Source: Microbacteriaceae bacterium (lineage in GTDB: Bacteria > Actinomycetota > Actinomycetes > Actinomycetales > Microbacteriaceae). From it: 64,000 nt of DNA. The stretch spans positions 26,940 to 90,939 of the forward strand of contig JASGFF010000001.1 of assembly GCA_047605685.1 (NCBI GenBank), written 5' to 3'. Under the pieces are notes generated by a model, which was given only the letters and a program-made list of their open reading frames with translations, did not search any database and was not told where the DNA came from. Made by a program: the position numbers and the translations under genes. This document shows positions 40,897 through 55,475 of this stretch, in pieces (positions within the stretch are counted from its first letter, which is position 1; each line of letters begins with the position of its first letter).

Positions 40897-40909
40897 GCCG
40901 GGCTGGACG

Positions 40910-40947: not shown

Positions 40948-40956
40948 TGCGCGGGG

Positions 40957-42264
40957 TCAGCCCGCGGCGTCGATCTCGCCTTGGAGCTCGCTGATGAACG
41001 CGTCCGCCGCGTCCAATGGCTCGCTCTGGCCGGCGAAGACCTCCTGTGTGTACCGCTCGAGGATGTCCTCGATGGTGGAGGCGCCGTTGGGGGTCGGCGC
41101 CGGGGTGTCACCCGGGGTGATGCTGTCCAGGTAGGCGATCGCGGCCTGGTCCGTCTCGGTCAGGCTCGAGGTGATCGCCTCACGGATCTCGTTGTTGGCG
41201 GGCACGCCGCGCTCGGTCCCGAGGATCGCACCGGCCTCGTCGCTGTTGAGCATGAAGTCCACGAACGCGGCGGCCTCGGCCGGGTGCTCGCTCTGGGACG
41301 AGATGGACCAGTACATCGACGGCTTGTAGAAGTAGGGGTTGACGTCGTCCGGCTCCGGCAGCTTCAGCAGCACGAAGTCGTCGCCGCTCGCGGCCTGGAT
41401 CGCCGTGATCTGCGTGTTCCACAGGGTGCCCATCGCCACGGCGTTGGTCGCCAGCGCTCCGGCGCCGATACCCGCGTTCTGGCTCTCGGTGATCTCCGCC
41501 GCCGACTGCATGCCGCCCGAGGACTGCAGGTCGAGCTCGAACTGCCACATGTCGGCCAGCGCCTGCGGGTCCAGCGCCACCGATCCGTCGTCATCGAACA
41601 GCTCGCCGCCCTCCGAGCGCGCCCAGTACTTGACGCTCCCGGTCTCGAAGCCGCCGATCTGCGCCGATCCGGTGATCGCGCCGTCGCTGGCCTCGGTCAG
41701 CTCGTCGGCGAGCGCCGCGTAGTCGTCCCAGCTCCAGGTGTCGTCGTCCGGCAGATCGACGCCGTACTGGTCGAACAACGTCTTGTTCGCGATGATCGCG
41801 TACACGGTCACGCCGATCGGGATCGCGTACTGGGTGTCGTCGACCTTGCCGAGGTCGACCGTCGACTCGTCGAAGTTGGAGGTGTCGATGCTGAGGTCGC
41901 TGAGGTCGTACAGGGATCCGCGGCTGGCGTAGGAGGAGAGATAGGTCTCGTCCATCTGGACGACGTCAGGCATGTCGCCGGCGGCGGTCTCGGTGGCCAG
42001 CTGGTCCCAGTAACCGGTCCAGTCGGTGTACTGCGGCTCGACGGTGATGTTCGGGTACTCCTTCTCGAACGCGTCGATCGCCTCCTGGGTCAGCTGCACG
42101 CGCGTGTCGCCGCCCCAGAACGTGGCGGTGATGGTGACCGGGTCGGTGCTCAGCGCGGTCACCGACGAGCTGCTCGAGCCGGAGCAGCCCGCCAGCACGG
42201 CGGCCCCGCCCAGCGCCATGGCGACGGCCGCTACCGCGCGCCGCTGGTTCTTGCCTGTGATCAT
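40957..42264 (-). CDS. carbohydrate ABC transporter substrate-binding lipoprotein
   Basis: C-terminal 435 codons of ORF 40957..43098. Signal/lipobox ..GGAAVLAGCSG. Acidic SBP family 1 features. Confidence 0.85.
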   Translation of the reverse strand: MITGKNQRRAVAAVAMALGGAAVLAGCSGSSSSSVTALSTDPVTITATFWGGDTRVQLTQEAIDAFEKEYPNITVEPQYTDWTGYWDQLATETAAGDMPDVVQMDETYLSSYASRGSLYDLSDLSIDTSNFDESTVDLGKVDDTQYAIPIGVTVYAIIANKTLFDQYGVDLPDDDTWSWDDYAALADELTEASDGAITGSAQIGGFETGSVKYWARSEGGELFDDDGSVALDPQALADMWQFELDLQSSGGMQSAAEITESQNAGIGAGALATNAVAMGTLWNTQITAIQAASGDDFVLLKLPEPDDVNPYFYKPSMYWSISSQSEHPAEAAAFVDFMLNSDEAGAILGTERGVPANNEIREAITSSLTETDQAAIAYLDSITPGDTPAPTPNGASTIEDILERYTQEVFAGQSEPLDAADAFISELQGEIDAAG

Positions 42265-42344
42265 GTGTGTCTCTCCTATGAGATCAGCGATGTGATTGAT
42301 GCGGATACGGGGCAGAGGCCCCGGGGTCCGGCGACGACGCCGGC

Positions 42345-43247
42345 TTACTTTCCTCCCGTGGTGGCGATTCCCTTGACGAGGAACCGCTGGCCGAAGAGGA
42401 AGATCAGGAAGACCGGGATCAACGAGACGACGCTCATGGCGAACACCGCGCCCCAGTTGGTGACGCCCTGCGAGTCGACGAACGCGCGGAGCGCGAGCGG
42501 AGTGGTGTACATCTCGGGCTTGGTCAGGTAGATCAGCTGCGAGAAGAAGTCGTTCCACGTCCAGATGAAGGTGAAGATCACCGTCGTGCCGAGCGCGGGG
42601 ACCATCAGCGGCAGCATGATCTGCGTGAAGATCCGCAGATGGCCGGCCCCGTCGATCCGTGCCGCCTCGTCGAGCTCGCGCGGGATGCCGCGGATGAACT
42701 GCACCATCAGGAAGACGAAGAACGCGTCGGTCGCGAACAGCTTGGGCAGGATCAGCGGCCAGAACGTGTTCACCAGGTTCACCTGCGAGAACATGATGTA
42801 CTGCGGGACGATGATCACGTGGATGGGGACCATGATCGTGACCAGCATGATCGCGAACCACCACCGCTTGCCTCGGAAGTCGAGCCGGGCGAAGGCGTAG
42901 GCCGCGAGCGAGCAGGCCACGAGGTTGCCCGTGATCGCCCCGACCACCACGATCATCGAGTTGATCAGGTAGTGGCCGAAGGGCTGGGTCAGAGCCGACC
43001 AGCCGTCGATGTAGTTCGAGATCTCGAAGTTCTTCAGCAGCAGGCTCGGGTTCCCGAAGATCCCGTCGTTGGGTCGCAGCGAGCTGACCACCATCCACAG
43101 GACGGGGTAGAGCATCAGCAGCGCGCCCAGGATGAGCACGACGTGCTTGACCAAGGCGCGCGCCGACTGCAGCACCTGCCGACGCCGGGCCGGGGTGCGG
43201 GTCACGGCCTGCTTCGGGACGGACAGGATGGTGGATGTCTTAGTCAT
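42345..43247 (-). CDS. carbohydrate ABC transporter permease (MalG-like)
   Basis: ORF 300 aa. EAARIDGAGHLRIF EAA loop. Confidence 0.9.
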   Translation of the reverse strand: MTKTSTILSVPKQAVTRTPARRRQVLQSARALVKHVVLILGALLMLYPVLWMVVSSLRPNDGIFGNPSLLLKNFEISNYIDGWSALTQPFGHYLINSMIVVVGAITGNLVACSLAAYAFARLDFRGKRWWFAIMLVTIMVPIHVIIVPQYIMFSQVNLVNTFWPLILPKLFATDAFFVFLMVQFIRGIPRELDEAARIDGAGHLRIFTQIMLPLMVPALGTTVIFTFIWTWNDFFSQLIYLTKPEMYTTPLALRAFVDSQGVTNWGAVFAMSVVSLIPVFLIFLFGQRFLVKGIATTGGK

Positions 43248-44169
43248 CGTAGAAAACCCAGTACTTCGAGAGCCAGAAATTGAGAGCGGTGAACGCGCCG
43301 ATGACCAGCACCAACAGCCATGCCAACGCCGACGCGTACCCCATGTCGAATGAGCCGAACGCTCGTTGATACAGGTAGAGCGAGAACACCAGCGTCGAGT
43401 CCGCCGGCCCGCCCGTCCCGCCCGAGACCACGAACGCCTGCGTGAACGACTGGAACGCGTGGATGATCTGCAGCACCAGGTTGAAGAAGATGATCGGGCT
43501 CAAAAGCGGCATCGTGATGCTCCGGAACTGCCGCCACCGACTCGCCCCATCTACCTGCGCGGCCTCGTAATACGACGTCGGGATCTGCCGCAGACCGGCC
43601 AGGAAGATCACCATCGGTGAGCCGAACGTCCACACGTTCAGCAGGATCAGGGTTGCCAACGCGGTATCAGGACTGGAGATCCAGCCCTGCCCCTGGATCC
43701 CGAAGAACGCGAGAGCATCGTTGACCAGGCCGCCCGTGCCGAACACCGTGCGCCACAGCACCGCGATCGCGACCGAGCCGCCGAGCAGCGACGGCAGATA
43801 GAACACCGACCGGTAGAACGACAGTCCGCGCACTCCCCGGTCCAGGAACACCGCGAGCGCGAGTGCGAGCGCCAGTTGGAGCGGGACCGAGATGATCACG
43901 TAGAGGAACGTGTTGATCAACGATCGCAGCAGACGCTCATCGCCGAACATCCGCACGATGTTGTCCAGTCCGTTGAACACCGGCGCCTGCAACAGGTTGT
44001 ACTTCGTGAAGGCCAGCACCAACGACGCCAGCATCGGCCCGGCCGTGATCAGCACCAGGCCGATGAACCAAGGGGTCAGGAACCAGGCCGCGGCGCGGTT
44101 ATCCCGCTTGCTGCCTTTGCCGCCCTTCTCGAGCTTTCGAAGCTCTGCAAGCGCGCTCATACGGTGCAC
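43240..44169 (-). CDS. carbohydrate ABC transporter permease (MalF-like)
   Basis: ORF 309 aa, polytopic, EAAQVDGASRWRQF. Confidence 0.9.
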   Translation of the reverse strand: MHRMSALAELRKLEKGGKGSKRDNRAAAWFLTPWFIGLVLITAGPMLASLVLAFTKYNLLQAPVFNGLDNIVRMFGDERLLRSLINTFLYVIISVPLQLALALALAVFLDRGVRGLSFYRSVFYLPSLLGGSVAIAVLWRTVFGTGGLVNDALAFFGIQGQGWISSPDTALATLILLNVWTFGSPMVIFLAGLRQIPTSYYEAAQVDGASRWRQFRSITMPLLSPIIFFNLVLQIIHAFQSFTQAFVVSGGTGGPADSTLVFSLYLYQRAFGSFDMGYASALAWLLVLVIGAFTALNFWLSKYWVFYDD

Positions 44170-44249
44170 CGGCTCCGGCTCACGACTGGCGACGACTTAC
44201 GCGCACAGTTCCCTGTTCCCGCGACCACGATGCTCCTTCGAATCAAAAA

Positions 44250-44261
44250 GTGTTCGTTCAC
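44250..44261. promoter_or_regulatory. weak copy of the GTGAWCGWTCAC operator (gtgttcgttcac)
   Basis: Right half-site perfect, left half has 2 mismatches. 81 nt upstream of the ABC operon start. Confidence 0.4.
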
Positions 44262-44282
44262 TATTTGGCTTTCCTCAAGATA

Positions 44283-44294
44283 GTGAACGATCAC
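44283..44294. promoter_or_regulatory. operator copy gtgaacgatcac
   Basis: Near-palindrome with a central CG and AT-rich flanks. 114 nt upstream of the ABC permease start at 44169. Confidence 0.6.
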
Positions 44295-44774
44295 GAATCA
44301 TGTCAAGATCGACCTGCGGGCGACCTGCGGCATCCGCGGGCCGGGCGAATCACGTCGGCGCGACGAGGTGCCGGAACCATCCCGACGACGATCGCCCGAG
44401 CTCCGCGGCGGCGCATCGCGCGCAGACCGTCCTGCGCGCTCATCGGCTCCGCCTGGAGGTCGGATCGTTCGCCGTCATCGATTGCCCTTCGCCGTCGGAG
44501 TGCGCCCCGCGACGCGTCCGAAAGTCCGCCGCAGAGCCGATCGAATCGCCACTCTACGACACTCCGGCCGAAAAGTGTAAGCGCTTTCCCAAATTTGTCG
44601 GCGCTTTCATTTCCTAGGCGCGCGCGGACCGCCGCGCGGGCCGCCCCAGGCGTCGCGGGACCCGCCGACGCGGGCACGGCACACGCCCTTCCCCACACGG
44701 ACGCCGTCGGCTGCGCCCCCTCGGCACGGTGACGGCGCCCGCCTCCGGAGTCGATCCGATCGCGACCGGCGTCG

Positions 44775-46190
44775 CTATGCGCTGCGGGGCGCGGGCCGCT
44801 CGCACCGGCCGACCAGGGATCTCACCCGGGCGCTGAAACCGGCGTCATCCGCGAGCCGGGAGTCGATCGTGCGCAGCATCGCCGCGACCGGGTCCCTCTC
44901 CGCCAGCGCCCCCGCGATCTCCGTGCCGCGGCTGTCCTCGCCCGCCACCCCGCGGCGCACCGCCGCGATCCAGGCGGCGATCACGAGGGCCGCGCCCTCG
45001 GCGGCACGGCCCGCACGACGCTCCGCCCGTGCGACCGGACCGATGCGCAGCGACAGCTTCGTCAGCGCGTCCGAGGCGATCTGCTCCAGCCGGTGCTCGA
45101 TGCGCGGGTTCGCGAACCGTTCCCGAAGGGCGGCGCGATACGCATCGACCCCCAGGCCGTCGGGCAGCTGCCGCTCCGCCTCGTCCCACCAGCGCTCGAC
45201 GGCTCGAGCGCATTCGGGGTCGGCCATCGCGTACGCCACCGTGTCGTGCCCACGGAGGCGGCCGAGCGCGGCGAGCAGCGTGTGGGCGCCGTTGAGCAGC
45301 CAGAGCTTGCGGGCCTCGTACGGCTCGATCTCGTCGACGAAGCGCGCTCCGGCCGATTCCCAGTCGGGACGCCCGGCCGGGAAGGCGCCCGAGAGCGTCC
45401 AGTCAGCGAACGGCTCCGCCGCCACCGGCACGGCATCCCGCCAGCCGGTGGCGGCGGCCACCTCCGCGGCGAGCTCGGCGTCGACGCGCGGCGTGATGCG
45501 GTCCACCGACGTCGAGACGAAGGACGCCGACGAGGTGATCCAGTCGACCAGGCCAGGCTCGACCTCGGCGGCCAGACGGGCGAGCGCCCGCCGCAGCGCG
45601 CCGCCGTTGTCCGGGAAGTTGTCGCAGGGCACGATCGCGAGCGGCCCCGCCCCGAGCCTGCGCCGCTCACGCAGTGCGGCGACGAGCCGCCCCGGCGTCG
45701 TCTCGCAGTGTCCGGCGGCGGCACCGCGCAGGCGCGCCAGGTCGGCGGCGATGCCCGGATGGGCCAGGTCGAGGGCGCCGCTCGGATCGAGGCAGTACCC
45801 CGCCTCGGTGACCGTCAGCGTCACGACGGCCGTGCGCGCGGCGGCGATGCCGGCGACGAGCGCCTCGACCTCGGTGCCGGCGTGGGCCGCGACGACGCTG
45901 TCGACGATCTCGAACCGGTCCCCGGCGAGCCCGCGCTCCACGAGCGTGAACAGTCCGTCCTGGGCGGCCAGGCGATGCGCCAGCTCCGCGCCGCGCCCGG
46001 CGAACGCGGCGATGCCCCACTCCCGGGCGTCGGCGGCGCGCGCCGTGTACCAGGCCTGGTGCGCGCGGTGGAAGGCGCCGAGCCCGATGTGCACGATCCG
46101 TGCCGGCGGCCGCCCGTCGGCGACTCCCCGGGATCGCGCGAGGGCCTGGCGCGACAGCTGCCGCGCGGTCACGGCCTGAACGCCCGACAC
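44775..46190 (-). CDS. mannitol dehydrogenase family oxidoreductase (mannitol 2-dehydrogenase / D-mannonate (fructuronate) / tagaturonate reductase family)
   Basis: ORF 471 aa. IVHIGLGAFHRAHQAWY N-terminal motif and a VDRITP segment. Confidence 0.85.
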   Translation of the reverse strand: MSGVQAVTARQLSRQALARSRGVADGRPPARIVHIGLGAFHRAHQAWYTARAADAREWGIAAFAGRGAELAHRLAAQDGLFTLVERGLAGDRFEIVDSVVAAHAGTEVEALVAGIAAARTAVVTLTVTEAGYCLDPSGALDLAHPGIAADLARLRGAAAGHCETTPGRLVAALRERRRLGAGPLAIVPCDNFPDNGGALRRALARLAAEVEPGLVDWITSSASFVSTSVDRITPRVDAELAAEVAAATGWRDAVPVAAEPFADWTLSGAFPAGRPDWESAGARFVDEIEPYEARKLWLLNGAHTLLAALGRLRGHDTVAYAMADPECARAVERWWDEAERQLPDGLGVDAYRAALRERFANPRIEHRLEQIASDALTKLSLRIGPVARAERRAGRAAEGAALVIAAWIAAVRRGVAGEDSRGTEIAGALAERDPVAAMLRTIDSRLADDAGFSARVRSLVGRCERPAPRSA

Positions 46191-46336
46191 GCGATGGCGT
46201 CCACCAGGCGGGAGCCGGGCTCGAGGCCGAACCGTTCCGACAGCGGGATGTCGCAGCCGGTGTCCGGGCCGTTCGGGAGGCGGCAGAACAGCGCTCTCGC
46301 GTCACTCGCGTCGTGTGCCGCCATGGTCCCTTGCAT
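46169..46336 (-). CDS. candidate small ORF (51-55 aa) preceding and overlapping the dehydrogenase gene
   Basis: Below the ORF-track length cut-off. My translation is (MQGT)MAAHDASDARALFCRLPNGPDTGCDIPLSERFGLEPGSRLVDAIACRAFRP. Third-position G+C is about 90% versus about 59% at second positions. The operator lies 18 nt upstream. No recognisable family. Confidence 0.3.
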   Translation of the reverse strand: MQGTMAAHDASDARALFCRLPNGPDTGCDIPLSERFGLEPGSRLVDAIACRAFRP

Positions 46337-46353
46337 CGGATGGGCAAATAGTA

Positions 46354-46365
46354 GTGATCGTTCAC
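46354..46365. promoter_or_regulatory. operator copy gtgatcgttcac in the divergent dehydrogenase/LacI promoter region
   Basis: Same 12-mer as at 54777, with AT-rich flanks. Confidence 0.65.
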
Positions 46366-46393
46366 GATAACTACTGCCCGGCTACAGTAATCA

Positions 46394-47458
46394 ATGATCA
46401 CGACCGCGTCAATCGACCGTCCGGGGGAGGGGATCGTGGCCCAGCACACAGTGGCCCAGCACACAGGGACGGCTCGGCGTCCGACCATCCTCGAGGTGGC
46501 CCGGCTGGCCGGCGTCTCGCACCAGACCGTCTCCCGGTTCCTCAGGTTCAACGGCGACGGGCTCAAGCCCGCGACGCGTGAGCGTGTCACCGCCGCGATC
46601 GAGGAGCTGAACTACCGCCCGAACCTCCTCGCCCGCTCCATGCGCACCCGCGTGACCGGCCGGGTGGCCGTGCTCATGCCGGCGCTCGCCTACAACCCGG
46701 CCCGCATGCTCGCCGGCGCGACGCGGACGGCGCACGACGCCGGCTACACCGTGGAGGTCATCAGCCCGGAGGGCGGCGCCGCCTCCCGCGCCGAGCGCAT
46801 CCTGGAACTGTCCGACACGCGACAGGTCGACGGGATCCTGTCGCTGGCGGCCGCCGACCTCGCCGACGGCGACCTGCCGACCGACACGGTCGTCGTCATC
46901 TCCTCGAGCCTCGACGACGAGATGCGCAGCACCGGGGAGCTGACCGACGCGACGCCGATCGTGAGGTTCGTCGAGCGCCTCGCCGAACTCGGACACCGGC
47001 GTTTCTACCACGTGGCCGGCGAGGCCGACTTCCCGTCTGCGCGGACTCGGGCGGCCGCGTTCACCGAGACCGTGGAGCGCCTGGGCCTGGAGTCGACGGG
47101 GATCTACGCGGGCGACTGGAGCGGGGAGTCGGGCGTCGCGGCGGTGCGGGCGATCCGCGCCGGCCACGAGCCCACCGCCATCATCGCGGCCAACGACGTC
47201 ACGGCCGCCGGCGTGATGCGCGGCGCCGTCGCCCGCGGCTGGAGCATTCCCGGCGACATCAGCGTGACCGGCTGGGACAACAACCCGATGGGACCGTTCC
47301 TGAGCCCGTCGCTGACCACCGTGGAGGTGAACCACGAACGGGTCGGCAGCAACGGGATGGCGCGGCTGATCGCCCTGCTGCGCGACGAGGAGCCCCAGAT
47401 CACGGATGTCCCGGTGAACCAGATCATCTGGCGGGAGTCGACCGGCCCCGCCGCCTGA
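46394..47458 (+). CDS. LacI-family transcriptional regulator (probable cognate of the GTGAWCGWTCAC sites)
   Basis: ORF 354 aa. HTH PTILEVARLAGVSHQTVSRFL. The start is uncertain (ATG 46394, or GTG 46436/46451 inside a 15-bp x2 duplication). Confidence 0.85.
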   Translation: MITTASIDRPGEGIVAQHTVAQHTGTARRPTILEVARLAGVSHQTVSRFLRFNGDGLKPATRERVTAAIEELNYRPNLLARSMRTRVTGRVAVLMPALAYNPARMLAGATRTAHDAGYTVEVISPEGGAASRAERILELSDTRQVDGILSLAAADLADGDLPTDTVVVISSSLDDEMRSTGELTDATPIVRFVERLAELGHRRFYHVAGEADFPSARTRAAAFTETVERLGLESTGIYAGDWSGESGVAAVRAIRAGHEPTAIIAANDVTAAGVMRGAVARGWSIPGDISVTGWDNNPMGPFLSPSLTTVEVNHERVGSNGMARLIALLRDEEPQITDVPVNQIIWRESTGPAA

Positions 47459-47558
47459 CGAACCGGGACCCCGGCGGCTCGGCGCCGGTCCACGGGCGTG
47501 CGTCCATCCACAGTCGACACCGGCCGATGGACGCCAGCACCGGCCGATTGACGCCAGA

Positions 47559-47570
47559 GTGATCGTTCAT
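47559..47570. promoter_or_regulatory. operator copy gtgatcgttcat
   Basis: One mismatch to the consensus. 159 nt upstream of the giant ORF. Confidence 0.5.
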
Positions 47571-47589
47571 TATAGTCAGCCGGCAGAGG

Positions 47590-47601
47590 GTGAACGTTCA
47601 C
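47590..47601. promoter_or_regulatory. operator copy gtgaacgttcac (perfect palindrome)
   Basis: 128 nt upstream of the ATG at 47729. Confidence 0.65.
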
Positions 47602-47728
47602 GTTTATGGCGTGGGCGTTGTACAACGACGTCCCCTCCATGACGCGTGCAAGGTCGCACCGCGCCCAGGCTCGTGGACTCACGCACGGAGCACCCCTCGG
47701 GACGTCCCGAAGGAAAGGATGACAGCCC

Positions 47729-50700
47729 ATGAGACGACCGCGTCTATGGATGCCCGCTCTCGCCGCTCTCACGATCGCCACCCTCGGCGCCGGCACGATA
47801 CTCGCCAACGCGACCACGGCCTCCGCCGCGACGACCGTGACGACCGTGACGACGAGCGCCGACACGACGTTCGCCGGCTACACCGACAAGGACGACCTCG
47901 GCACCACCGGACGCGAGATCGTCACGGACGGCGAGCTCCCGGTGACGGACGGCTCGGCGCCCACGGGAACGGGCACCACCTACTACGTCGACTCCGTCGA
48001 CGGCGACGACAGCGCCGACGGCACCTCGACCGACACGGCCTGGCAGTCGTTCGACAACGTGAACGACACCGTGTTCGAGGCGGGCGACCGCATCCTGCTG
48101 AAGGCCGGCAGCGTCTGGGAGGCTGACGGCGACACGGTCGCGACCGAGGCCTACGACTACACGACCTGGAGCGACGGCGTCGGCACCGACGTCGAGGGCG
48201 GCGACCCCACCGCGCTGCTGGCGCCGCAGGGCTCGGGAACCGAGGACGACCCGATCGTGCTCTCCAGCTACGGCGACGGCGCGGCCCCGGAGCTGGACGG
48301 CCGCGGCACCGTCAACGACGTGCTGCAGCTGACGAACCAGGAGCACTGGGACATCTCCAACATCGAGATCACCAACGTGACCGACGGCTTCGACGCCACG
48401 ACGAACGACGCCACAGGCCTCGCGCCGGGCGAGGAGGACCCCGACCAGGGAGACCTGCGCGGCATCCACATCCAGGGCGAGAGCGCGGGGGTTCTCAGCG
48501 GCTTCGACATCCACGACGTCTTCATCCACGACGTCAGCGGCGTGACCTGGTCGGTCACCAATGCCGGCGTCGACCGCTCGAAGCGGACCGGCGGCATCGT
48601 CTTCGAGGGGCTCAAGGGCGACGGCGTCACCGCCAGCCAGCTCGAGGACATCGTGATCAGCGACAGCGTGATCGCGAACACCTCCTTCGCGAACATCGCC
48701 TTCCGCCAGTTCTCCGGAATGGGCACCTGGCGGTATCACGACGTCGACCCGGGATGGGGCGACCGCGCCGCGGCCTCGGCGACCACGACGGGTGTGATCA
48801 CCGAGGACCCCGACTGGACCCCGTTCACCGACGTCGAGATCTCGGGGAACTACCTGACCAACAGCGGCACCGCCTACGGCTGGGACGCCATGTACCTGAC
48901 GAGCGTGCAGGACGCGACGGTCGAGGACAACCTCATCGACGGCGCCGGCGTCACGGGCATCGAGATGTACTGGGACGACAACATCGTGGTCCAGAACAAC
49001 GAGGTCGCGGACATCGAGGAGCGCACGGACGCGGCGGACAAGAACGGCATCGACATGGACCGTGGGACCTCGAACATCCTGGTCCAGGGCAACTACGTCC
49101 ACGACAGCGGCGAGGGCATCCTGCTCTGCGGGTTCTCGTTCAGCACGGCGGTCGTGCGGTACAACATCATCGCCGACATCGATCGCAACTACATCAACCC
49201 GCACGGCGACAGCGGCGTCAACGTCATCTACAACAACCTGATGTACAACGCCCAGGAGGGCGAGAGCGACGAGATCGGCTTCTTCCGCTCCTCGGGGACG
49301 GAGTCGACCTACCTGACGTCGAGCAATCTGCACTACGTGCTGAACAACGTGTTCATCAACACGCAGTCCGACGGGGTGACCGGCTCCGACTTCGAGACCG
49401 ACTATCCCGGCGTGACCTTCAGCAACAACTCCTACTCCGGGGTGGAGATCAGCGCCCCATCGGCCGACGCGAACGCCATCACGGCCGACCCGCAGCTGAT
49501 CGGGGACCCGCTGGACGACATCACCAACGCGGAGATCGGCTCGGTCTCCTCGCCGCTGATCGCGGCCGGCACCACCGTCGACCTGGCCACGATCGCGCCC
49601 GGCTTCGACGCCAGCGGGGAGTCGGACGACAGCCAGCTCACGGCCAGCACCGACTTCTTCGGCGAGAGCCTCTCGACGCCGCCCACGGTCGGCCCCACCT
49701 CGTACACGCCCGCCGACGGCGACGGCGTGATCGCGGGTGAGGTGCTGGACGAATCGGGTGAGCCCGTGCCCGACGCGACCGTCAGCTACGACTCGGAGTC
49801 GGTCACCGCCGACGACGACGGTCATTATGCGATCGAGGTCGAGGCCGGCACGTACACCCTGACGCCGAGCGCCACGGACTACGAGTCGGGCGACGGCGTC
49901 GAGGTGACGGTCGCCGACGGGGAGACGCTGGGGACGGACCTGACCCTGGGCGAGACGACCACCACCCTCGGCACGGTGACCGGCACGGTCACCGCCGCCG
50001 GATCCGTCGTCGCGGACGCGACCGTCGTGCTGTCGGAGGGCGAGGAGACCGTGGCGACGACCACGACCGACGACACTGGCGTCTACGCTTTCTCCGACGT
50101 GCCGGCGGCGAGCGACTACACGGTCGACGTGACCAAGGACGGCTACCTGGAGAGCTCCACGTCCGATGTGACCGTCGCGGCCGCGCGCACGACGACGGTC
50201 GACGTCACGCTCTCCCGCGATCCGGGCGAGACCGACTACGCGATCAACGAGACCTTCGACGACGAGACCACCGGCACCTTCACCGGCACCGCTGACGGCG
50301 TCTTCGCCGTGACCTCCTCGTCCTCGTCGGCGGCCACGCTCAGCATCGTGGAGGACGCCGACCAGTCGGGCAACAAGTACCTGGACATCGACAAGACCGC
50401 CAGCGGCAACATCGCGGTGTACACGCCCGAGGCGCAGGGCCTCACCGGCACGGTCACGATCGAGGCGAGGGTCAAACGCACCTCGACGACCTCCTACCCC
50501 AACCAGGTGGGCTTGTACTCCTACGCCGCGTCGGGCTGGGATGCCACCTCGCCGTGGTCCTCGTCCGACCCAGCGGCGACGTTCGCCTTCTCGAACGGGA
50601 ACATCATCACGCACAACGTGACCGGGTCGAGCACGACCGTGGCCGCCGAGGCCTACACGGTCGACCAGTGGTACACGATCCGCAACGTCGTCGACCTCGA

Positions 50701-52321
50701 CACCGGGACGTTCGACTTCTATGTGGACGACATGACCACGCCGGTCCTGTCCGACCAGCCGTTGCGCAGCCAGGTGGACGAGCTCGACTACTTCTCGTTC
50801 CTGTCCACCTCGTCGAACATCGGCGACATGCTCGTCGACTACTTCCGGGTGAACACCGGCGAGCCGTACGACTACGACGACTCCGTCCTCGGCAGCGTCG
50901 ACGTGGAGACCGACGACGGCCAGGTGACACTGGACACGTCGGACGACGGGCTGACCTACTCCGGCACCGTCGACCAGTTCACCGACGAGGTCACGGTCGC
51001 CGCGACCGCGGACAGCCCGTTCGCGAGCGTCTCCGTCGACGGGACCACGGTCGCCGACGGTGAGACGGTGACCGTGCCACTGGACGAGGGAGACGACCAG
51101 GAGGCGACGATCACGACCGACATCCCCGTCGTGGTCACCGCCGAGGACGACAGCACGACCTCCTACACGATCGCCATATCGCGGACCAATCCAAGCCAGT
51201 CGACACAGTTGCGCGACCTCTCGGTCGTCGGCTACGAGCTGAGCCCGACGTTCGAGCCGGACCTGCAGGGAACCGACGAGCCGTACACGCTGACCGAGAC
51301 CCTGGACAGCTCGGTGACCTCGGCGGAGATCGAGTGGGTGGTCGGCTGGGACGACCAGAGCGTGCAGGTCGACGGTAAGGACATCGCATCCGGCACGACC
51401 GAGACCACGGTCGATCTGGAGGCCGGCGAGAACACGATCGAGGTCGTGGCGAGCTCGTACGCGGGCGAGACGGGCACCTACGTGATCACGATCGACGTGG
51501 CCGAAGAGCCCACCTCCGTCACCGTGACCGGCACGTCCAGCGTTGTGGTCGGCGAGACGACCACGCTGACGGCGACGGTCGCGCCCGACGACGCGGATCA
51601 GAGCGTCACCTGGTCGTCGTCGGACACCGCGGTCGCCACCGTCTCCTCCGCGGGAGTCGTCACCGGCGTGGCGGAGGGGACGGCGGTGATCACGGCCACC
51701 TCCGATGCCGACGACGACATCTCCGGCTCGCTCTCGGTCACCGTGTCGCCCGCGGCTTCGGTCGCCACGGCTTCCACGGCGGCGGCGATATCGGCCGGCA
51801 CCGTGACGGTGTCGGGTACGGCGAGGGTCGGTTCGACGCTGCGAGCGCACACGGGGAGCTGGTCCCCCACGGGCGTGACGTTCACGTATCAATGGCTGCG
51901 CAATGGCGTCGCGATCAGCGGGGCCACGGGCTCGTCGCACAAGCTCGTGGCGAAGGACGCCCACACCCGGCTGAGCGTGCAGGTGACGGCCTCGGCCACC
52001 GGCTACACGAGCACCACGGCCGTGTCCGCCGCGACCACGAAGGTGAAGCTCGGCAAGCTGACGACGAAGAAGCCCACGATCGCGGGGACCGCTAAGGTCG
52101 GCAAGAGGCTGAAGGCCAAGTCGGGCACCTGGAGCCCGTCGGGCGTGAAGCTGCACTACCGGTGGTACCGCAACGGCAAGGTCATCAAGGGCGCCACCGC
52201 GTCGACCTACCGGCTCAAGAAGGCCGACAAGGGCGCCAAGATCACCGTGAAGGTCACCGGCAAGAAGTCCGGCTACGCGACGGCCGCCAAGAAGTCGAAG
52301 GCGACCGCGAAGGTCCGCTGA
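47729..52321 (+). CDS. secreted 1530-aa multidomain protein with a right-handed parallel beta-helix catalytic-type region (putative polysaccharide lyase/glycanase of unknown specificity)
   Basis: Signal peptide residues 1-33 (..ATTASA). Beta-helix-like repeats about residues 80-600 (47966-49528). Two CarboxypepD_reg-like domains (49724-49948, 49970-50215). LamG/ConA-like domain (50231-50854). Two cadherin-like beta-sandwiches (50882-51184, 51200-51496). Big_2 domain (51512-51745). Two paralogous C-terminal repeats (51791-52036, 52058-52318). Domain names are from pattern recognition only. Confidence 0.85.
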   Translation: MRRPRLWMPALAALTIATLGAGTILANATTASAATTVTTVTTSADTTFAGYTDKDDLGTTGREIVTDGELPVTDGSAPTGTGTTYYVDSVDGDDSADGTSTDTAWQSFDNVNDTVFEAGDRILLKAGSVWEADGDTVATEAYDYTTWSDGVGTDVEGGDPTALLAPQGSGTEDDPIVLSSYGDGAAPELDGRGTVNDVLQLTNQEHWDISNIEITNVTDGFDATTNDATGLAPGEEDPDQGDLRGIHIQGESAGVLSGFDIHDVFIHDVSGVTWSVTNAGVDRSKRTGGIVFEGLKGDGVTASQLEDIVISDSVIANTSFANIAFRQFSGMGTWRYHDVDPGWGDRAAASATTTGVITEDPDWTPFTDVEISGNYLTNSGTAYGWDAMYLTSVQDATVEDNLIDGAGVTGIEMYWDDNIVVQNNEVADIEERTDAADKNGIDMDRGTSNILVQGNYVHDSGEGILLCGFSFSTAVVRYNIIADIDRNYINPHGDSGVNVIYNNLMYNAQEGESDEIGFFRSSGTESTYLTSSNLHYVLNNVFINTQSDGVTGSDFETDYPGVTFSNNSYSGVEISAPSADANAITADPQLIGDPLDDITNAEIGSVSSPLIAAGTTVDLATIAPGFDASGESDDSQLTASTDFFGESLSTPPTVGPTSYTPADGDGVIAGEVLDESGEPVPDATVSYDSESVTADDDGHYAIEVEAGTYTLTPSATDYESGDGVEVTVADGETLGTDLTLGETTTTLGTVTGTVTAAGSVVADATVVLSEGEETVATTTTDDTGVYAFSDVPAASDYTVDVTKDGYLESSTSDVTVAAARTTTVDVTLSRDPGETDYAINETFDDETTGTFTGTADGVFAVTSSSSSAATLSIVEDADQSGNKYLDIDKTASGNIAVYTPEAQGLTGTVTIEARVKRTSTTSYPNQVGLYSYAASGWDATSPWSSSDPAATFAFSNGNIITHNVTGSSTTVAAEAYTVDQWYTIRNVVDLDTGTFDFYVDDMTTPVLSDQPLRSQVDELDYFSFLSTSSNIGDMLVDYFRVNTGEPYDYDDSVLGSVDVETDDGQVTLDTSDDGLTYSGTVDQFTDEVTVAATADSPFASVSVDGTTVADGETVTVPLDEGDDQEATITTDIPVVVTAEDDSTTSYTIAISRTNPSQSTQLRDLSVVGYELSPTFEPDLQGTDEPYTLTETLDSSVTSAEIEWVVGWDDQSVQVDGKDIASGTTETTVDLEAGENTIEVVASSYAGETGTYVITIDVAEEPTSVTVTGTSSVVVGETTTLTATVAPDDADQSVTWSSSDTAVATVSSAGVVTGVAEGTAVITATSDADDDISGSLSVTVSPAASVATASTAAAISAGTVTVSGTARVGSTLRAHTGSWSPTGVTFTYQWLRNGVAISGATGSSHKLVAKDAHTRLSVQVTASATGYTSTTAVSAATTKVKLGKLTTKKPTIAGTAKVGKRLKAKSGTWSPSGVKLHYRWYRNGKVIKGATASTYRLKKADKGAKITVKVTGKKSGYATAAKKSKATAKVR

Positions 52322-52354
52322 CCTGACGGCGGATCCCGACGGCGGATCCCGAAT

Positions 52355-52391
52355 AGAGGCCCGGCTCCCGTCCCACGGGGGCCGGGCCTCT
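52355..52391. terminator. strong GC hairpin (11-bp arms agaggcccggc / gccgggcctct) between convergent genes
   Basis: Perfect inverted repeat 34 nt after the giant ORF stop, followed by cgtgtt. Preceded by a 13-bp x2 direct repeat (52325-52350). Confidence 0.65.
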
Positions 52392-52481
52392 CGTGTTCGC
52401 GCCGGAGCGCCGGCACCCGGCCGGACTCCACGTGGTCGACGCGAGGCAACGGACTCGGCCCCCGCCGGGTCGGCAGACCGG

Positions 52482-53555
52482 TTACGGCGCGAGAACGCGC
52501 GCCTGAGCCTGCGCGCGGACGCTGAGCTCGGCCGCCTTGAAGGCGTGCGCCTGCGTCATCGCGTTCTCGGTGCGGTTCAGGCAATCCAGTATGAGCTCGC
52601 CGAAGAAGGGGTAGCCGACGGTGCCCGCGGCGTCGATGCGCCGCTCGCCGTCGCCGTTGACCAGGAACAGCTGGCCGGGGCCGTGGCCCGTGGCCACATC
52701 CACGTACTTGCGCAGCTCGATGTACCCCTCGGTGCCGAGGATGAAGGTGCGGCCGTCGCCCCAGGTCCTCAGCCCGTCGGGGGTGAACCAGTCGACGCGC
52801 ACGTATCCGGTGGTGCCGTTGTCCAGGACCAGGTGGGCGTCGCCGAAGTCGTCCAGCCCCGGCGTCTCGGGGTGCGCGTGGTTCGCGATCGTCGCACTGC
52901 TGATCTCGGCGTCCTGCGCGCCGGTGAAGTGCAGCAGCTGCTCGAAGTTGTGGCTGCCGATGTCGCACAGGATGCCGCCGTACCGCTCGCGCTCGAAGAA
53001 CCAGTCGGGCCTGCCGGTGCCGAGCCGGTGCGGCCCGAAGCCGGCGACGTGCAGCACCCGGCCGATCGCGCCCTCCTCGATGAGCCGGCCGGCCAGGACG
53101 GCCGCCTCGACGTGGATGCGCTCCGCGTAGTAGACCGCGTATTTGCGCCCGGTGCGCTCGGTGGCGGCGCGGGCGGCGGCCAGCTGGTCAAGGGTGGTCA
53201 GCGGCGCCTTGTCGGTGAAGTAGTCCTTGCCCGCTGCCATCACCCGCAGTCCCAGCTCGCAGCGCTCCGAGGCGATCGCGGCGCCGGCGACCAGGCGCAC
53301 CTGCGGATCGTCGAGCACCTCGGCCTCGCTGCGGGCGATGCGCGCCTGCGGGAAGGTCTCGCGGAATCTCTCGGCCCGCCCGGGCACCGGGTCGTAGACC
53401 CACTTCAGTGTGGCGCCGGCGTCGACGAGCGCGCCGGTCATGCCGCGGATGTGCCCGTGGTCGAGGTGGGTCGCGGCGATGACGAACTCGCCGGGTGCGA
53501 CCACGGGCCGGGGCACGGATGCGGGCGCGTAGTTGGCGCCGTCGGAACTGGGCAT
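52482..53555 (-). CDS. Gfo/Idh/MocA-family oxidoreductase
   Basis: C-terminal 357 codons of ORF 52482..54767, from MPSSDGANYAP. Rossmann N-domain plus a GFO_IDH_MocA C-domain pattern. Confidence 0.8.
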   Translation of the reverse strand: MPSSDGANYAPASVPRPVVAPGEFVIAATHLDHGHIRGMTGALVDAGATLKWVYDPVPGRAERFRETFPQARIARSEAEVLDDPQVRLVAGAAIASERCELGLRVMAAGKDYFTDKAPLTTLDQLAAARAATERTGRKYAVYYAERIHVEAAVLAGRLIEEGAIGRVLHVAGFGPHRLGTGRPDWFFERERYGGILCDIGSHNFEQLLHFTGAQDAEISSATIANHAHPETPGLDDFGDAHLVLDNGTTGYVRVDWFTPDGLRTWGDGRTFILGTEGYIELRKYVDVATGHGPGQLFLVNGDGERRIDAAGTVGYPFFGELILDCLNRTENAMTQAHAFKAAELSVRAQAQARVLAP

Positions 53556-53581
53556 GGATTCCTCGCTGTCGCCGTCGCCGC

Positions 53582-54742
53582 TCAGCCGGCGTCCGACGAG
53601 GCGCCGACGATGATGGCGCCCTGCTCGCGCCGAGAGCCGGTCTTCTCGAAGAAGCGCGGGGCGCGCGACTCGAGCCCGCCGGAGCGGTAGTAGGGGCTGT
53701 CCGGCGGCAGCGGCAGGTCGATGGTGCGACGCTCGATCGCCGCCTGGTAGATCGCGGTGACCAGTTCGACGGCATTGCGCCCGTCGACGCCGGTGGCCTG
53801 CAGCGGCGCCTCGCCGCGGATCGCGGCGAGGACGTTGGCGATCTGCCCCGCGTGGCGCACGTGCTCCAGCGGCACGTGGCTCGCGGCGAGCGCGTCGAGT
53901 CGCGCCACGAGCTCTGCGTCGCCGCCCGGCGCGGGGAAGCCGTCCTCGCCGCCCCTCTCGGCGACGGCGCGCCACGGCTGGGAGACGCGCGCTCGCTCGC
54001 CCTGCACGACGATCGCCTGTTCCTCGCCGTGGTCGACGACGGAGCTCGTCAGCTCCGCGAGCGCCCGGTCGTACTGGAGCACGGCCACCGACAGGTCTTC
54101 GACCTCGGCGTTGTCGTGCTGTGCGTTGGTCATCATGGCGGCCACGGCGCGCGGGCGGCCCAGCAGCCACAGCAGCAGGTCGATGTGGTGGATCGCGTGG
54201 TTGAGCGTGCAGCCGCCGCCCTCCGAGGCCCAGGTGCCGCGCCACCACAGGTCGTAATAGGGCAGGCCGCGCCACCACGACGAGTCGACCCGCACATGGG
54301 AGATCGAGCCGATCAGACCGGTGCCGAGCACCTCCTTGAGCGTGGCGATGTCGTCGCGGTAGCGGTTCTGCGCGATCACGGACAGGATGCGTCCCGACTC
54401 CGCCGCCGCGGCGAGCATCGCGTCGCACTCCTCGAGCGAGGTGGCCATCGGCTTCTCGACGACGACGTTCACCCCGTGACGCAGGTACTGGATCGCCAGC
54501 GGCGCGTGCGCCGCCGGCGGGGTGACGATGCTGACGAGGTCGAGTCGCTCGGCCGCGAGCATCGAATCGGCGCTGTCGTAGGCCCGCACGTTCCGCAGGC
54601 CGTGCTCGTCGCGCTTGGCGGACGCCCGCTCGACGCCGAGATCGGAGATCGCCACGATCTCGACCTCCTCGGGGAACTGCAGGTACGCCTTGATGTGCGC
54701 GTTCGAGATCCCGCCGGCTCCGACGATTCCGACCTTGAGCAT
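53582..54742 (-). CDS. Gfo/Idh/MocA-family oxidoreductase
   Basis: ORF 386 aa. MLKVGIVGAGGISNAHI..VVVEKPMA motifs. Confidence 0.85.
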   Translation of the reverse strand: MLKVGIVGAGGISNAHIKAYLQFPEEVEIVAISDLGVERASAKRDEHGLRNVRAYDSADSMLAAERLDLVSIVTPPAAHAPLAIQYLRHGVNVVVEKPMATSLEECDAMLAAAAESGRILSVIAQNRYRDDIATLKEVLGTGLIGSISHVRVDSSWWRGLPYYDLWWRGTWASEGGGCTLNHAIHHIDLLLWLLGRPRAVAAMMTNAQHDNAEVEDLSVAVLQYDRALAELTSSVVDHGEEQAIVVQGERARVSQPWRAVAERGGEDGFPAPGGDAELVARLDALAASHVPLEHVRHAGQIANVLAAIRGEAPLQATGVDGRNAVELVTAIYQAAIERRTIDLPLPPDSPYYRSGGLESRAPRFFEKTGSRREQGAIIVGASSDAG

Positions 54743-54776
54743 CCGCGCTCGTCCCCTCTCCGGACACCGAACATTA

Positions 54777-54788
54777 GTGATCGTTCAC
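54777..54788. promoter_or_regulatory. operator copy gtgatcgttcac
   Basis: 35 nt upstream of the oxidoreductase start at 54742. Confidence 0.65.
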
Positions 54789-54859
54789 CAAATGCTACCG
54801 CGGCCCGCTCGCGTCGGCCAGGCCGCTGCCGCACCCCCACCCCGGGCCCCGTTAGGTAA

Positions 54860-54877
54860 TTAGTTACTTGTCACTAA
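54860..54877. promoter_or_regulatory. candidate TetR operator (ttagttac-tt-gtcactaa, 8-bp arms, 1 mismatch) in a strikingly AT-rich patch
   Basis: gttaggtaattagttacttgtcactaac ends one base before the TetR ATG. Confidence 0.5.
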
Positions 54878-54878
54878 C

Positions 54879-55460
54879 ATGGCGAGCATGGCGGAGCGGA
54901 TGCGGGGCGAGGACCGTCGAGCGCAGGTGCTGGGGATCGCCGCGAAGGAGTTCGCGGAACACGGCCTGCACGGGGCGTCGACGGAGACGATCGCGCGCGC
55001 GGCGGGGATCACCCAGGCGTACGTCTTCCGGATGTTCGGCACGAAGAAGGCGCTGTTCCTGGAGCTCGTGACGGGTGCGTTCGAGCGGGTCGGCGACGGC
55101 ATGCTCGCCGCCGGCGCGGGAGCGACCGGGACGGGGTGCCTGCAGCGGATGGGCGCGCAGTACTACGGGCTGCTGTCGGACCGGACCTCGCTGCTGCTCC
55201 AGCTGCAGGGCTTCGCCGCCTGCGGGGACGCCGAGGTGCAGCGGGTCGTGCGCGAGCGGTTCGCCCGCCTGTGGCAGGTCGTCGCCCAGGCGACCGGGCT
55301 GGATGCGGTGACCGTCAAGTCGTTCCTCGCCTTCGGGATGCTGCTGAACATCGGGGCCGCGATCGACGTCGACGCGATCGCCGAGCCGTGGGCCGAGGGC
55401 GTGCGCACCCGCATCCTGCCGGGCCTGTTCGAGCACATCACGGCGGAGACGAACCGGTGA
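54879..55460 (+). CDS. TetR/AcrR-family transcriptional regulator
   Basis: ORF 193 aa. N-terminal HTH ..FAEHGLHGASTETIARAAGITQAYVFRMF. Confidence 0.85.
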   Translation: MASMAERMRGEDRRAQVLGIAAKEFAEHGLHGASTETIARAAGITQAYVFRMFGTKKALFLELVTGAFERVGDGMLAAGAGATGTGCLQRMGAQYYGLLSDRTSLLLQLQGFAACGDAEVQRVVRERFARLWQVVAQATGLDAVTVKSFLAFGMLLNIGAAIDVDAIAEPWAEGVRTRILPGLFEHITAETNR

Positions 55461-55475
55461 GAGACGAACCGGTGA
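55446..55475. repeat. 15-bp tandem duplication (gagacgaaccggtga x2) at the tetR/MFS junction
   Basis: Copy 1 ends with the tetR stop. Copy 2 contains the GTG that can start the MFS gene. Confidence 0.85.

Follow-up and report, generated by a model that had tools for sequence, protein, structure and literature searches.

A LacI-family repressor and its palindromic operators probably define a reduced regulon for glucuronate-bearing oligosaccharides in a Microbacteriaceae bacterium

Introduction

The closest described counterparts of the system analyzed here are the LacI/GalR local sugar repressors, including LacI, GalR, and PurR of E. coli and CcpA of Bacillus, which couple a helix-turn-helix (HTH) to a type-I periplasmic-binding-protein-like sensor, act at symmetric operators with a central CG that overlap the core promoter, and are encoded beside their targets. 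The same features are recognizable in a 64,000-nucleotide stretch of DNA from a Microbacteriaceae bacterium (assembly GCA_047605685.1, contig JASGFF010000001.1, positions 26,940 to 90,939; hereafter the window), where a gene for a LacI-family protein is accompanied by six copies of a 12-bp palindrome. Based on comparative sequence analysis, the six palindromes are very probably operators of this adjacent repressor, and the genes that they precede probably form a regulon, reduced in this strain, for the uptake and catabolism of glucuronate-bearing oligosaccharides.

In E. coli, the isomerase pathway for hexuronates is regulated by ExuR and UxuR, members of the GntR family; the window regulator differs from both in having a LacI HTH and a periplasmic-binding-protein-like domain rather than GntR/FCD. 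LacI-family regulators of hexuronate use are listed in a 2014 compendium as ExuR, UxuR, and KdgR in Bacillales, ExuR in Clostridia and Lactobacillaceae, and UxaR, UxuR, and KdgR in Bacteroides (PMC4052901). Among the hexuronate regulators retrieved from that compendium none is actinobacterial, and Actinobacteria are stated there to be under-represented (PMC4052901). The likeness to these entries lies in the LacI-family control, seen in relatives of the window, of uxaC, uxuB, uxuA, kdgK, and eda-type genes together with uptake genes, whereas the window regulon adds a secreted GH136-like enzyme and a pair of Gfo/Idh/MocA genes to what the retrieved entries describe (PMC4052901). The circuit itself is an ordinary one of textbook type, and the general understanding of LacI-type regulation is unchanged by it; its regulator and operator are nowhere described in the literature searched, a full-text search for the 12-mer GTGAWCGWTCAC and its 10-mer cores having returned no relevant paper.

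Results

Six palindromes and their regulator

Exact matches to GTGAWCGWTCAC number four in the window (44283, 46354, 47590, and 54777), where 0.03 are expected from dinucleotide-preserving shuffles, none of 100 of which gave four exact matches. With up to one mismatch the count rises to seven (0.55 expected) through the addition of 44250, 47559, and 37622, and at two mismatches the 12 matches found represent background (8.9 expected). These counts uphold the six copies listed in the original prediction, all of which do lie in promoter or intergenic DNA, as it had claimed. A 20-bp weight matrix was built solely from 22 sites of other loci (L003-L009, from other Microbacterium, Agromyces, Streptomyces, and Saccharothrix), whose regulators are orthologs 60-71% identical to the window LacI. 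On this matrix the six sites score 25.5-33.1 bits, the next-best matches being one of 11.8 bits that overlaps a real site and a decayed operator of 11.2 bits at 46390-46401, with all others at or below 7.8. The copy at 44250, initially taken for a weak one, in fact has the top score: GTGTTCGTTCAC, with its A-rich and TAT flanks, is a conserved variant found at the equivalent position of orthologous loci. The match at 37622 was considered as a further site and rejected as a chance match, being located inside a thiolase gene and scoring 4.5 bits. Five of the six sites were regained independently by a repeat finder as one 17-nt family, and repetition around the sites ends beyond approximately 17 nt of flank. 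The AT-rich setting noted earlier is also evident: mean GC content is 71%, but 60-bp segments centered on the six sites reach only 42-60% and so rank among the lowest 0.05-5.3% of the window, and all 60-bp stretches below 50% GC in the whole 64 kb fall within this locus.

The association of the motif with the regulator extends to other genomes. All nine loci reached through LacI orthologs (about 58-95% identity) have two or three copies of the motif in the promoter beside lacI. The window itself derives from a Microbacterium, and the two loci closest to it, L001 and L002, come from genome bins of that genus. Their regulators are 94-95% and 88% identical to the window LacI, and they hold five and nine motif sites, respectively, at the equivalent promoters and at additional ones; the motif is also present in metagenomic loci L057, L103, L106, and L110, while regulators 44-50% identical to the window LacI are accompanied by a slightly shifted variant, GTGATCGATCAC. 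Clusters from Kribbella and Myceligenerans (L010/L011) have homologs of the beta-helix protein, GH115, and the ATP-binding cassette (ABC) importer beside unrelated LacI proteins (26-29% identical), and the motif was not found in either. As these clusters carry the cargo genes without the motif, the site follows the regulator and not the cargo, and the idea that the operator travels with the GH136-like, GH115, and ABC genes was rejected. Both the earlier assignment of the motif as a LacI-type operator and the grouping of the marked genes into one regulon are strengthened by these comparisons, given that the motif has two-fold symmetry with a central CG, accompanies the LacI orthologs, occurs at the regulator's promoter in 9/9 ortholog loci, and leaves an invariant footprint in an eight-locus alignment. 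A Pfam census of 59 operator-adjacent proteins from high-GC metagenome loci, supportive but noisy and based on a crude gene caller, returned LacI 11 times, permeases nine, binding proteins four, PfkB three, Gfo three, and KDPG (2-keto-3-deoxy-6-phosphogluconate) aldolase twice.

The LacI protein has an HTH (PF00356) at residues 31-77 of its long form, or approximately 17-63 counted from GTG 46436, followed by a type-I periplasmic-binding-protein-like effector domain (PF13377, and PF00532 with E 5e-11), and displays full-length homology to the solved structures of LacI, CcpA, PurR, and RbsR. The HTH sequence is kept in the orthologs that share the operator. Compared with E. coli LacI, the window protein lacks the C-terminal tetramerization extension, and there is no sign of long-range looping. 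The start at ATG 46394 that had been proposed is probably not the true one: the decayed operator includes this codon, and in L002 it falls in no open frame. Translation probably begins at GTG 46436, which sits behind a GGAGG ribosome-binding site where the conserved frame opens in relatives. An exact 15-bp tandem duplication (46436-46465, encoding VAQHT-VAQHT) opens the gene in the window and is not found in L002. NCBIfam gave no equivalog at cut-off for the regulator, UxuB, the Gfo proteins, or the binding protein, and no match at all for the giant secreted protein.

Operator placement within the promoters

A consensus promoter scan of the 11-kb region returned exactly two strong promoters, those of the importer and of the giant gene, each with an operator in its spacer (Table 1). 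Three of the four promoters have two operators, of which one occupies the -35/-10 spacer up to the -10 box and the other lies 13-18 nt beyond that box on the downstream side; paired operators are 31-35 bp apart at most promoters. The distances given in the original prediction are correct: 81 and 114 nt from the importer start at 44169, and 35 nt from the Gfo1 start at 54742. When the importer promoter was aligned across eight diverged loci, the invariant blocks were essentially the -35 box, operator O1, the TA of the -10 box, and operator O2, the last being invariant save at one position; the ribosome-binding site is kept in six of the eight. L001 (3011) and L002 (13961) have identical copies of operator O2 of the giant gene.

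The region between lacI and the divergent uronate unit is more intricate. The operator at 46354, at approximately +12 to +23 of the leftward promoter, overlaps with what may be the -35 box of lacI. The leftward promoter was not reported by the consensus scan, its -10 box matching at three of six positions, and was recognized as an inverted copy of the giant-gene promoter (72% over 46 nt). The operator in its spacer has decayed; its equivalent is intact in L002 (9955, GTGAACGATCAC) and has one mismatch in L001 (456). The candidate -10 boxes of lacI (TACAGT) and of the uronate unit (TACTGT) overlap on opposite strands at 46383-46389 in the near-palindrome TACAGTA. The Gfo operon has a single operator, which on the coding strand abuts a -10-like hexamer, TAATGT (54771-54776). 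Taken together, the operator layout and the predicted domain architecture of the protein are those of a standard LacI-type repressor arrangement.

Table 1. Features of the regulon locus, in window coordinates. Numbers in parentheses after L001 and L002 are positions in those loci; bits refer to the 20-bp weight matrix.
Feature	Coordinates	Strand	Basis and remarks
ABC solute-binding lipoprotein	40957..42264	-	SBP_bac_1 E 1e-33; last importer-operon gene
ABC permease 2	42345..43247	-	BPD_transp_1 E 6.5e-19
ABC permease 1	43240..44169	-	BPD_transp_1; first importer-operon gene; alternative start ATG 44160
Short upstream reading frame, 23 codons, GTG start	44157..44228	-	behind strong ribosome-binding site AAGGAGCATC
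Operator O2, importer promoter, GTGTTCGTTCAC	44250..44261	.	15 nt downstream of -10 box; 33.1 bits
Importer promoter, TTGACA-18-nt spacer-TATCTT	44277..44306	-	consensus promoter scan, 10/12 matches
Operator O1, importer promoter	44283..44294	.	in spacer, abuts -10 box; exact match; 28.0 bits; invariant in 8 loci
Mannitol-dehydrogenase-family gene, uxuB candidate	44775..46172	-	Pfam Mannitol_dh and Mannitol_dh_C; alternative in-frame GTG 46190 upstream
uxaC (glucuronate isomerase) remnant, 51 codons	46169..46324	-	tblastn match; stop overlaps uxuB start as GTGA
Operator, divergent uxaC'-uxuB / lacI region	46354..46365	.	exact match; 27.3 bits; kept in L001 (421) and L002 (9920)
Inferred leftward uxaC'-uxuB promoter, TTGACG-17-nt spacer-TACTGT	46384..46412	-	by eye; inverted copy of giant-gene promoter
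Decayed operator, ATCAATGATCAC	46390..46401	.	3 mismatches including central CG; in leftward-promoter spacer; holds ATG 46394; 11.2 bits
LacI-family repressor gene, 340 aa	46436..47458	+	Pfam LacI HTH E 1.6e-17; Peripla_BP_3 E 1.5e-32
Giant-gene promoter, TTGACG-17-nt spacer-TATAGT	47548..47576	+	consensus promoter scan, 10/12 matches; layout kept in L001 and L002
Operator O1, giant-gene promoter, GTGATCGTTCAT	47559..47570	.	in spacer, abuts -10 box; 27.5 bits
Operator O2, giant-gene promoter, perfect palindrome	47590..47601	.	13 nt downstream of -10 box; exact match; 25.6 bits
Secreted 1530-aa protein (giant gene)	47729..52321	+	signal peptide; GH136-like beta-helix ~residues 45-660, then CarboxypepD_reg x2, cadherin-like x2, Glucodextran_B, Big_2
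GC-rich hairpin, giant gene / Gfo2 convergent gap	52356..52391	.	by reading; equivalent in L001 and L002
Gfo/Idh/MocA oxidoreductase 2 (Gfo2)	52482..53585	-	GFO_IDH_MocA_C3 E 2e-20
Gfo/Idh/MocA oxidoreductase 1 (Gfo1)	53582..54742	-	Pfam match
Operator, Gfo1-Gfo2 operon	54777..54788	.	exact match; 25.5 bits; kept in L001 (10025)

The gene identities underlying Table 1 agree with those first proposed, with Pfam confirming the permeases, the binding protein, the mannitol-dehydrogenase-family protein, LacI, the 1530-aa beta-helix protein, and the two Gfo/Idh/MocA proteins. Third-position GC bias, used to tell genuine genes from spurious frames in DNA of 71% GC, is strong throughout the intact frames of the giant gene, the importer genes, lacI, uxuB, and both Gfo genes.

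Uronate genes and the remnant of uxaC

The mannitol-dehydrogenase-family gene divergent from lacI is most likely the fructuronate reductase gene uxuB. Its product matches the NCBIfam fructuronate reductase subfamily with E 6e-74, below the curated cut-off, and uxuB lies directly downstream of uxaC in L002, L004, and L057, its GTG start overlapping the uxaC stop as GTGA in L002. In the window, the 150 bp separating the 46354 operator from uxuB hold a frame that matches the L002 UxaC in five patches with 71% identity, including the N-terminus, the GPDTGxDI and ERFGLEPG motifs, and the C-terminus. Because this remnant aligns in patches and keeps the GTGA overlap, we conclude that uxaC has eroded in place. 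A tblastn search of the window with UxaC, UxuA, kinase, aldolase, GH115, and GH42 sequences found the uxaC remnant alone.

The relatives supply what the window lacks. L002 has an operator-controlled uxaC-uxuB unit divergent from lacI, a unit of uxuA, PfkB kinase, and KDPG aldolase with its own operator between lacI and the giant gene, and a GH115 alpha-glucuronidase gene with two operators 3' of the giant gene. L057 (regulator 68% identical) has three operator pairs, serving an importer operon with a GH136-like gene at its end, a uxaC-uxuB unit divergent from lacI, and a GH115-uxuA unit, and M. terrae carries a GH2-uxaC-uxuB operon and a gene for a GH53 giant protein with three operator sites between them. 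The operator-controlled genes of the isomerase pathway thus amount to uxaC, uxuB, uxuA, kdgK, and eda in L002, the first three of these in L057, and uxuA in L001. The claim that dehydratase, kinase, and aldolase genes are absent stands for the 64 kb; the accompanying view that the pathway falls outside known schemes does not, as the relatives carry the standard glucuronate isomerase route. uxaC, uxuA, the kinase, the aldolase, and GH115 have been lost from the window locus, and its copy of the regulon is reduced. E-values against the PDB do not separate a xylan type from an arabinogalactan type of GH115 (BtGH115A 3.9e-24; xylan glucuronidases 5e-22 to 4e-19).

Two irregularities were observed in the non-coding DNA around these genes. 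A 20-bp tandem repeat at 47519-47558, CACCGGCCGATGGACGCCAG followed by CACCGGCCGATTGACGCCAG, occupies the place of uxuA in relatives (in L002 also that of the kinase and aldolase genes), its second copy supplying the TTGACG of the giant-gene -35; it was probably left behind by a deletion or a repair event. The other irregularity is a segment of approximately 470 bp (44315-44786) that separates the importer promoter from the uxuB end and is absent from L002, where the gap is approximately 20 bp. It has no coding bias, and blastn and tblastx against all fetched loci and the rest of the window detected no similarity. Its AT-rich patch at 44553-44612 has two half-palindromes of another LacI-type shape, TGTAAGCGCTTTCC (44576) and TGTCGGCGCTTTCA (44596), and the segment may be the relic promoter of a deleted unit.

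A secreted protein with a GH136-like module

The giant protein had been proposed as a candidate depolymerase on account of its beta-helix; matches to the PDB, a structural model, and a family profile keep it a candidate enzyme and refine the assignment to a distant GH136-type glycosidase rather than a generic depolymerase or lyase. As a single sequence, its N-terminal 660 residues match GH136 lacto-N-biosidases in the PDB weakly (E 1.5e-13). A profile of the 39-member family finds 7v6m with E 1.8e-121 and LnbX with E 1.9e-107, GH136 entries as a whole ranging from 1.8e-121 to 1.1e-88. An AlphaFold2 model with a predicted local distance difference test (pLDDT) score of 86.7 has GH136 enzymes as its top six Foldseek chains (TM-score 0.67-0.73, best E 5.5e-23). 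D437 is invariant and D444 nearly invariant among the 39 members, and the two align with the D...D of the LnbX sequence GDGQAWDAD; they are spaced as are the acid/base D568 and the nucleophile D575 of ErLnb136 (PMC7335108). By alignment, the GH136 catalytic Asp pair is conserved in the giant protein.

The likeness to the GH136 lacto-N-biosidases (LnbX of Bifidobacterium longum, TnX, BsaX, and ErLnb136) consists of a right-handed beta-helix and an Asp pair seven residues apart. In contrast, the giant protein is only about 20% identical to the solved enzymes, its module is fused to approximately 870 aa of immunoglobulin-like and cadherin-like domains, and its host is a soil-type actinobacterium. 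The model has a single helix (residues 55-67) ahead of the beta-helix, and no candidate gene for an LnbY/GH136-I partner lies adjacent, no search with an LnbY profile having been made; the sequence contains no LPXTG or sortase motif. Homologs at 60-66% identity occur in Kribbella, Myceligenerans, Kineococcus, and Streptomyces, and more distant ones in three primate-associated Bifidobacterium species (B. lemurum, B. saguinibicoloris, and B. jacchi). GH136-like genes lie directly behind the operator in L103 and L106, inside the operator-controlled ABC operon in L057, and next to GH115 in one cluster in L010/L011. Such repeated association with GH115 and glucuronate genes suggests that the substrate is a glycan decorated with glucuronate. 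Since the enzyme is co-regulated or clustered with glucuronate genes and GH115, and not with lacto-N-biose genes, its specificity likely differs from that of a lacto-N-biosidase.

Several further observations concern the transcript of this gene. Its leader of approximately 130 nt is kept in three loci (window 47602-47728, L001 3023-3151, L002 13973-14101) and could fold into a long-range helix of 9 bp (GACGUCCC...GGGACGUC) stopping immediately short of the ribosome-binding site; the leader has no Rfam match, and the three close sequences offer no informative covariation. The hairpin in the convergent gap downstream is likely a bidirectional terminator; it lacks a T tract and was not called by the terminator scan. 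In L001, the conserved ATG of the giant gene (3152) falls outside the long open frame, which starts at 3485, and the 3' part diverges from the window after 51501; these anomalous L001 stretches (3152-3485 and 6927-7579) could be frameshifts or assembly errors in the genome bin.

Importer and oxidoreductase genes

Two BPD_transp_1 permeases and an SBP_bac_1 lipoprotein form a CUT1-type importer. The N-terminus of the binding protein (MITGKNQRR...LAGC) includes a lipobox, and its best solved relatives, YesO (5z6b, E 8e-56) and TogB (2uvg, E 4e-27), both bind uronate-containing oligosaccharides. It is 52-65% identical to the binding proteins encoded beside lacI orthologs in Agromyces, Saccharothrix, and Streptomyces; permeases 1 and 2 are 79% and 77% identical to their Agromyces orthologs, and permease 2 is 69% identical to a permease of the Kribbella GH115/GH136-like locus. 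No ATPase gene for the importer is present in the locus; actinobacterial CUT1-type importers usually share an ATPase such as MsiK. The short reading frame ahead of permease 1 has a TGA stop that overlaps the permease ATG at 44160 as ATGA. A ribosome-binding site of the AAGGAGCATC type followed by GTG is kept in six loci (window, L002, L008, L057, L106, and L110), the frame ranging from 17 to 34 codons among loci with no conservation of the peptide sequence, and it may act as a translational-coupling leader.

Gfo2 shows strong similarity to 2p2s (E 3e-109) and 3u3x, structural-genomics proteins of unknown function. In both L069 and L090, the gene for a Gfo2 homolog (38-44% identity) and a lacI relative are transcribed away from each other, and an operator pair separates them. 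The best solved relatives of Gfo1 are 3q2k (E 7e-39) and 3q2i, deposited only as 'oxidoreductase' or 'dehydrogenase', which we take to be WlbA, a UDP-N-acetylglucosaminuronate (UDP-GlcNAcA) 3-dehydrogenase. More weakly, Gfo1 matches DgpA (approximately 1e-24) and the glucuronide-3-dehydrogenase of P2B11 (8tdi, E 2e-23). The presence of two Gfo/Idh/MocA genes in one operon of a glucuronide-related regulon recalls the clusters for 3-keto-glycoside cleavage, such as the P2B11 glucuronide cluster (bioRxiv 10.1101/2024.03.25.586180). The similarity of Gfo1 to these systems is partial, however, covering residues 50-226, and Pfam found no partner gene of the sugar-phosphate-isomerase or lyase type in the Gfo operon; a 3-keto cleavage route is thus a lead only. 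In other genera (L003, L005, L007, L008, L009, L073, L096, and L120) the regulator and importer genes are followed by a trio of Gfo/Idh/MocA, DUF6807 (PF14100), and often cupin genes; a literature search for DUF6807/PF14100 found no known function.

Discussion

The arrangement of the locus suggests how the regulon would operate. With no inducer present, LacI would sit on the operator in the -35/-10 spacer, abutting the -10 box, and, at three of the four promoters, on a second operator downstream, the spacer copy at uxaC'-uxuB having decayed, so that RNA polymerase would be blocked at four units: the permease-permease-binding protein operon, the uxaC remnant with uxuB, the gene for the GH136-like enzyme, and Gfo1-Gfo2. 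The regulator, encoded divergently from uxaC'-uxuB, probably also controls itself. The secreted GH136-like protein, acting as an exo-glycosidase, would clip a short acidic oligosaccharide from an extracellular glycan that, judging from the relatives, is probably of plant origin, for example glucuronoxylan or a glucuronate-capped (arabino)galactan, and the YesO/TogB-like importer would take up the product. In the relatives, a cytoplasmic GH115 would then free glucuronate, which UxaC, UxuB, UxuA, 2-keto-3-deoxygluconate (KDG) kinase, and KDPG aldolase would convert to pyruvate and glyceraldehyde-3-phosphate. For repressor binding, inducer, substrate, and the roles of the Gfo proteins, we infer these steps from comparison with other loci and proteins.

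Several observations weigh against this reading. Both the Gfo promoter and that of lacI have weak -35 elements. The pathway is incomplete in the window, where uxuB is the only classical uronate gene left, and the regulon may here serve another substrate or be partly vestigial. The neighbors of the orthologous regulators are mixed, with Gfo, DUF6807, and cupin genes in Agromyces, Streptomyces, and Saccharothrix and GH35, GH42, GH53, and GH2 genes in other Microbacterium, so the ancestral effector need not be related to glucuronate. Finally, a double-operator scan of metagenomes, which returned more than 120 loci, yielded a large subset of approximately 60% GC (about 45 loci, many from human gut, e.g., L015, L016, and L020) with two copies of GGTGAACGTTCACC ahead of a uxaC homolog; in L036 (6488-6537), the one such locus examined, the copies are 38 bp apart and precede uxaC-uxaB-uxaA. 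The LacI protein beside this near-identical core aligns to the window LacI over its N-terminal approximately 135 residues alone, with 32% identity, so the 12-mer does not by itself identify the regulator, and these loci were rejected as members of the same regulon. Their existence, and the generic nature within the LacI family of an AACGTT or ATCGTT core with central CG, speak for binding of the window sites by some other factor, for example a global CcpA-like LacI paralog. We nevertheless regard this as very improbable, since the motif accompanies the regulator ortholog in every locus examined from four genera and invariably lies in the promoter region of the regulator gene itself, clusters of related enzymes and transporters that have other LacI proteins are devoid of it, and the use of the shifted GTGATCGATCAC by regulators of 44-50% identity is consistent with co-evolution of protein and site. 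The notion that the copies arose by chance, or belong to a small dispersed repeat without regulatory function, draws on the shortness of the motif and on nothing else; set against the excess of exact copies, their confinement to promoters, and their retention at orthologous positions while the flanks diverge and all repetition stops within about 17 nt, its probability is negligible.

If the sites are operators of the adjacent LacI, it is the substrate and the present-day capacity of the regulon that leave more room for alternatives. The same circuit might serve a galactan or galacto-oligosaccharide, or a pectic fragment (rhamnogalacturonan), with the uronate genes as lineage-specific add-ons. 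In Agromyces, Streptomyces, and Saccharothrix the conserved genes linked to the regulator are indeed the importer, Gfo, and DUF6807 (with cupin), not uronate genes, and galactan-type GH35, GH42, GH2, and GH53 genes neighbor it in several Microbacterium loci. YesO, the best solved relative of the binding protein, is a component of the rhamnogalacturonan system. The GH136 enzymes characterized to date release Gal-beta-1,3-GlcNAc (PMC7335108). We consider a different substrate rather unlikely all the same, because uxaC, uxuB, uxuA, kinase, aldolase, and GH115 genes are immediately preceded by operators in L002, L057, L001, and M. terrae, the importer permeases are 67-69% identical to those of the Kribbella cluster with GH115 and GH136-like genes, and uxuA, encoding mannonate dehydratase, marks the glucuronate and not the galacturonate branch. 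A minor but real possibility is that the regulon in this strain is a decaying relic, in which operators and repressor persist and growth on the original substrate is no longer supported: uxaC is down to 51 codons, neither the locus nor the rest of the 64 kb contains uxuA, kinase, aldolase, or GH115 genes, one operator has decayed, and the control regions of the window contain lineage-specific duplications and the unexplained 470-bp insert. Against this, third-position GC bias is strong in the remaining frames, which are all intact, and six operators have stayed perfect or nearly so. The uxaC remnant retains both its start codon and the overlap with uxuB, which suggests continued selection on uxuB expression, and paralogs of the missing genes may exist outside the 64 kb. 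A reduced regulon for glucuronate-bearing oligosaccharides remains the probable reading.

The locus offers a testable regulator-operator pair for a group of LacI orthologs widespread in Actinomycetota (Microbacterium, Agromyces, Streptomyces, and Saccharothrix) and a regulon context for three poorly understood groups, namely a GH136-like clade beyond the lacto-N-biose setting of the gut, a YesO/TogB-like importer, and Gfo/Idh/MocA proteins with or without DUF6807. The most useful lead is the GH136-like enzyme, whose repeated link to GH115 and the glucuronate isomerase pathway makes it a candidate for a new activity toward plant glycans decorated with glucuronate. A second lead is the function of the Gfo pair. 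Speculatively, and with considerable doubt, the GH136-like module could have a new specificity, inside GH136 or next to it, in the exo-release of glucuronate-containing di- or oligosaccharides from plant glucuronoxylan or gum-type arabinogalactan, the Gfo pair could break down the imported glucuronide without hydrolysis, through a 3-keto (non-Koshland) route dependent on nicotinamide adenine dinucleotide, and LacI could sense the oligosaccharide or its product. The locus is also an example of regulon erosion, in which operators and repressor are kept while uxaC has been reduced to a translationally coupled 51-codon remnant.

Limits of the locus and flanking features

The regulon unit spans approximately 40957-54788. 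Genes on either side of it (thiolase, CoA-transferase, and IclR on one flank; TetR, a major facilitator superfamily (MFS) transporter, and a flavin adenine dinucleotide (FAD) monooxygenase on the other) were considered as further members and rejected, as they have neither a site nor a functional link. An Rfam scan of 40000-56000 at a permissive threshold gave three sub-threshold chance matches alone. Just beyond the Gfo operator, an inverted repeat at 54856-54878, TTAGTTAC-TT-GTCACTAA, lies directly upstream of the divergent TetR gene (54879-55460), which is followed by the MFS transporter gene; this repeat is presumably a TetR operator unrelated to the LacI regulon.

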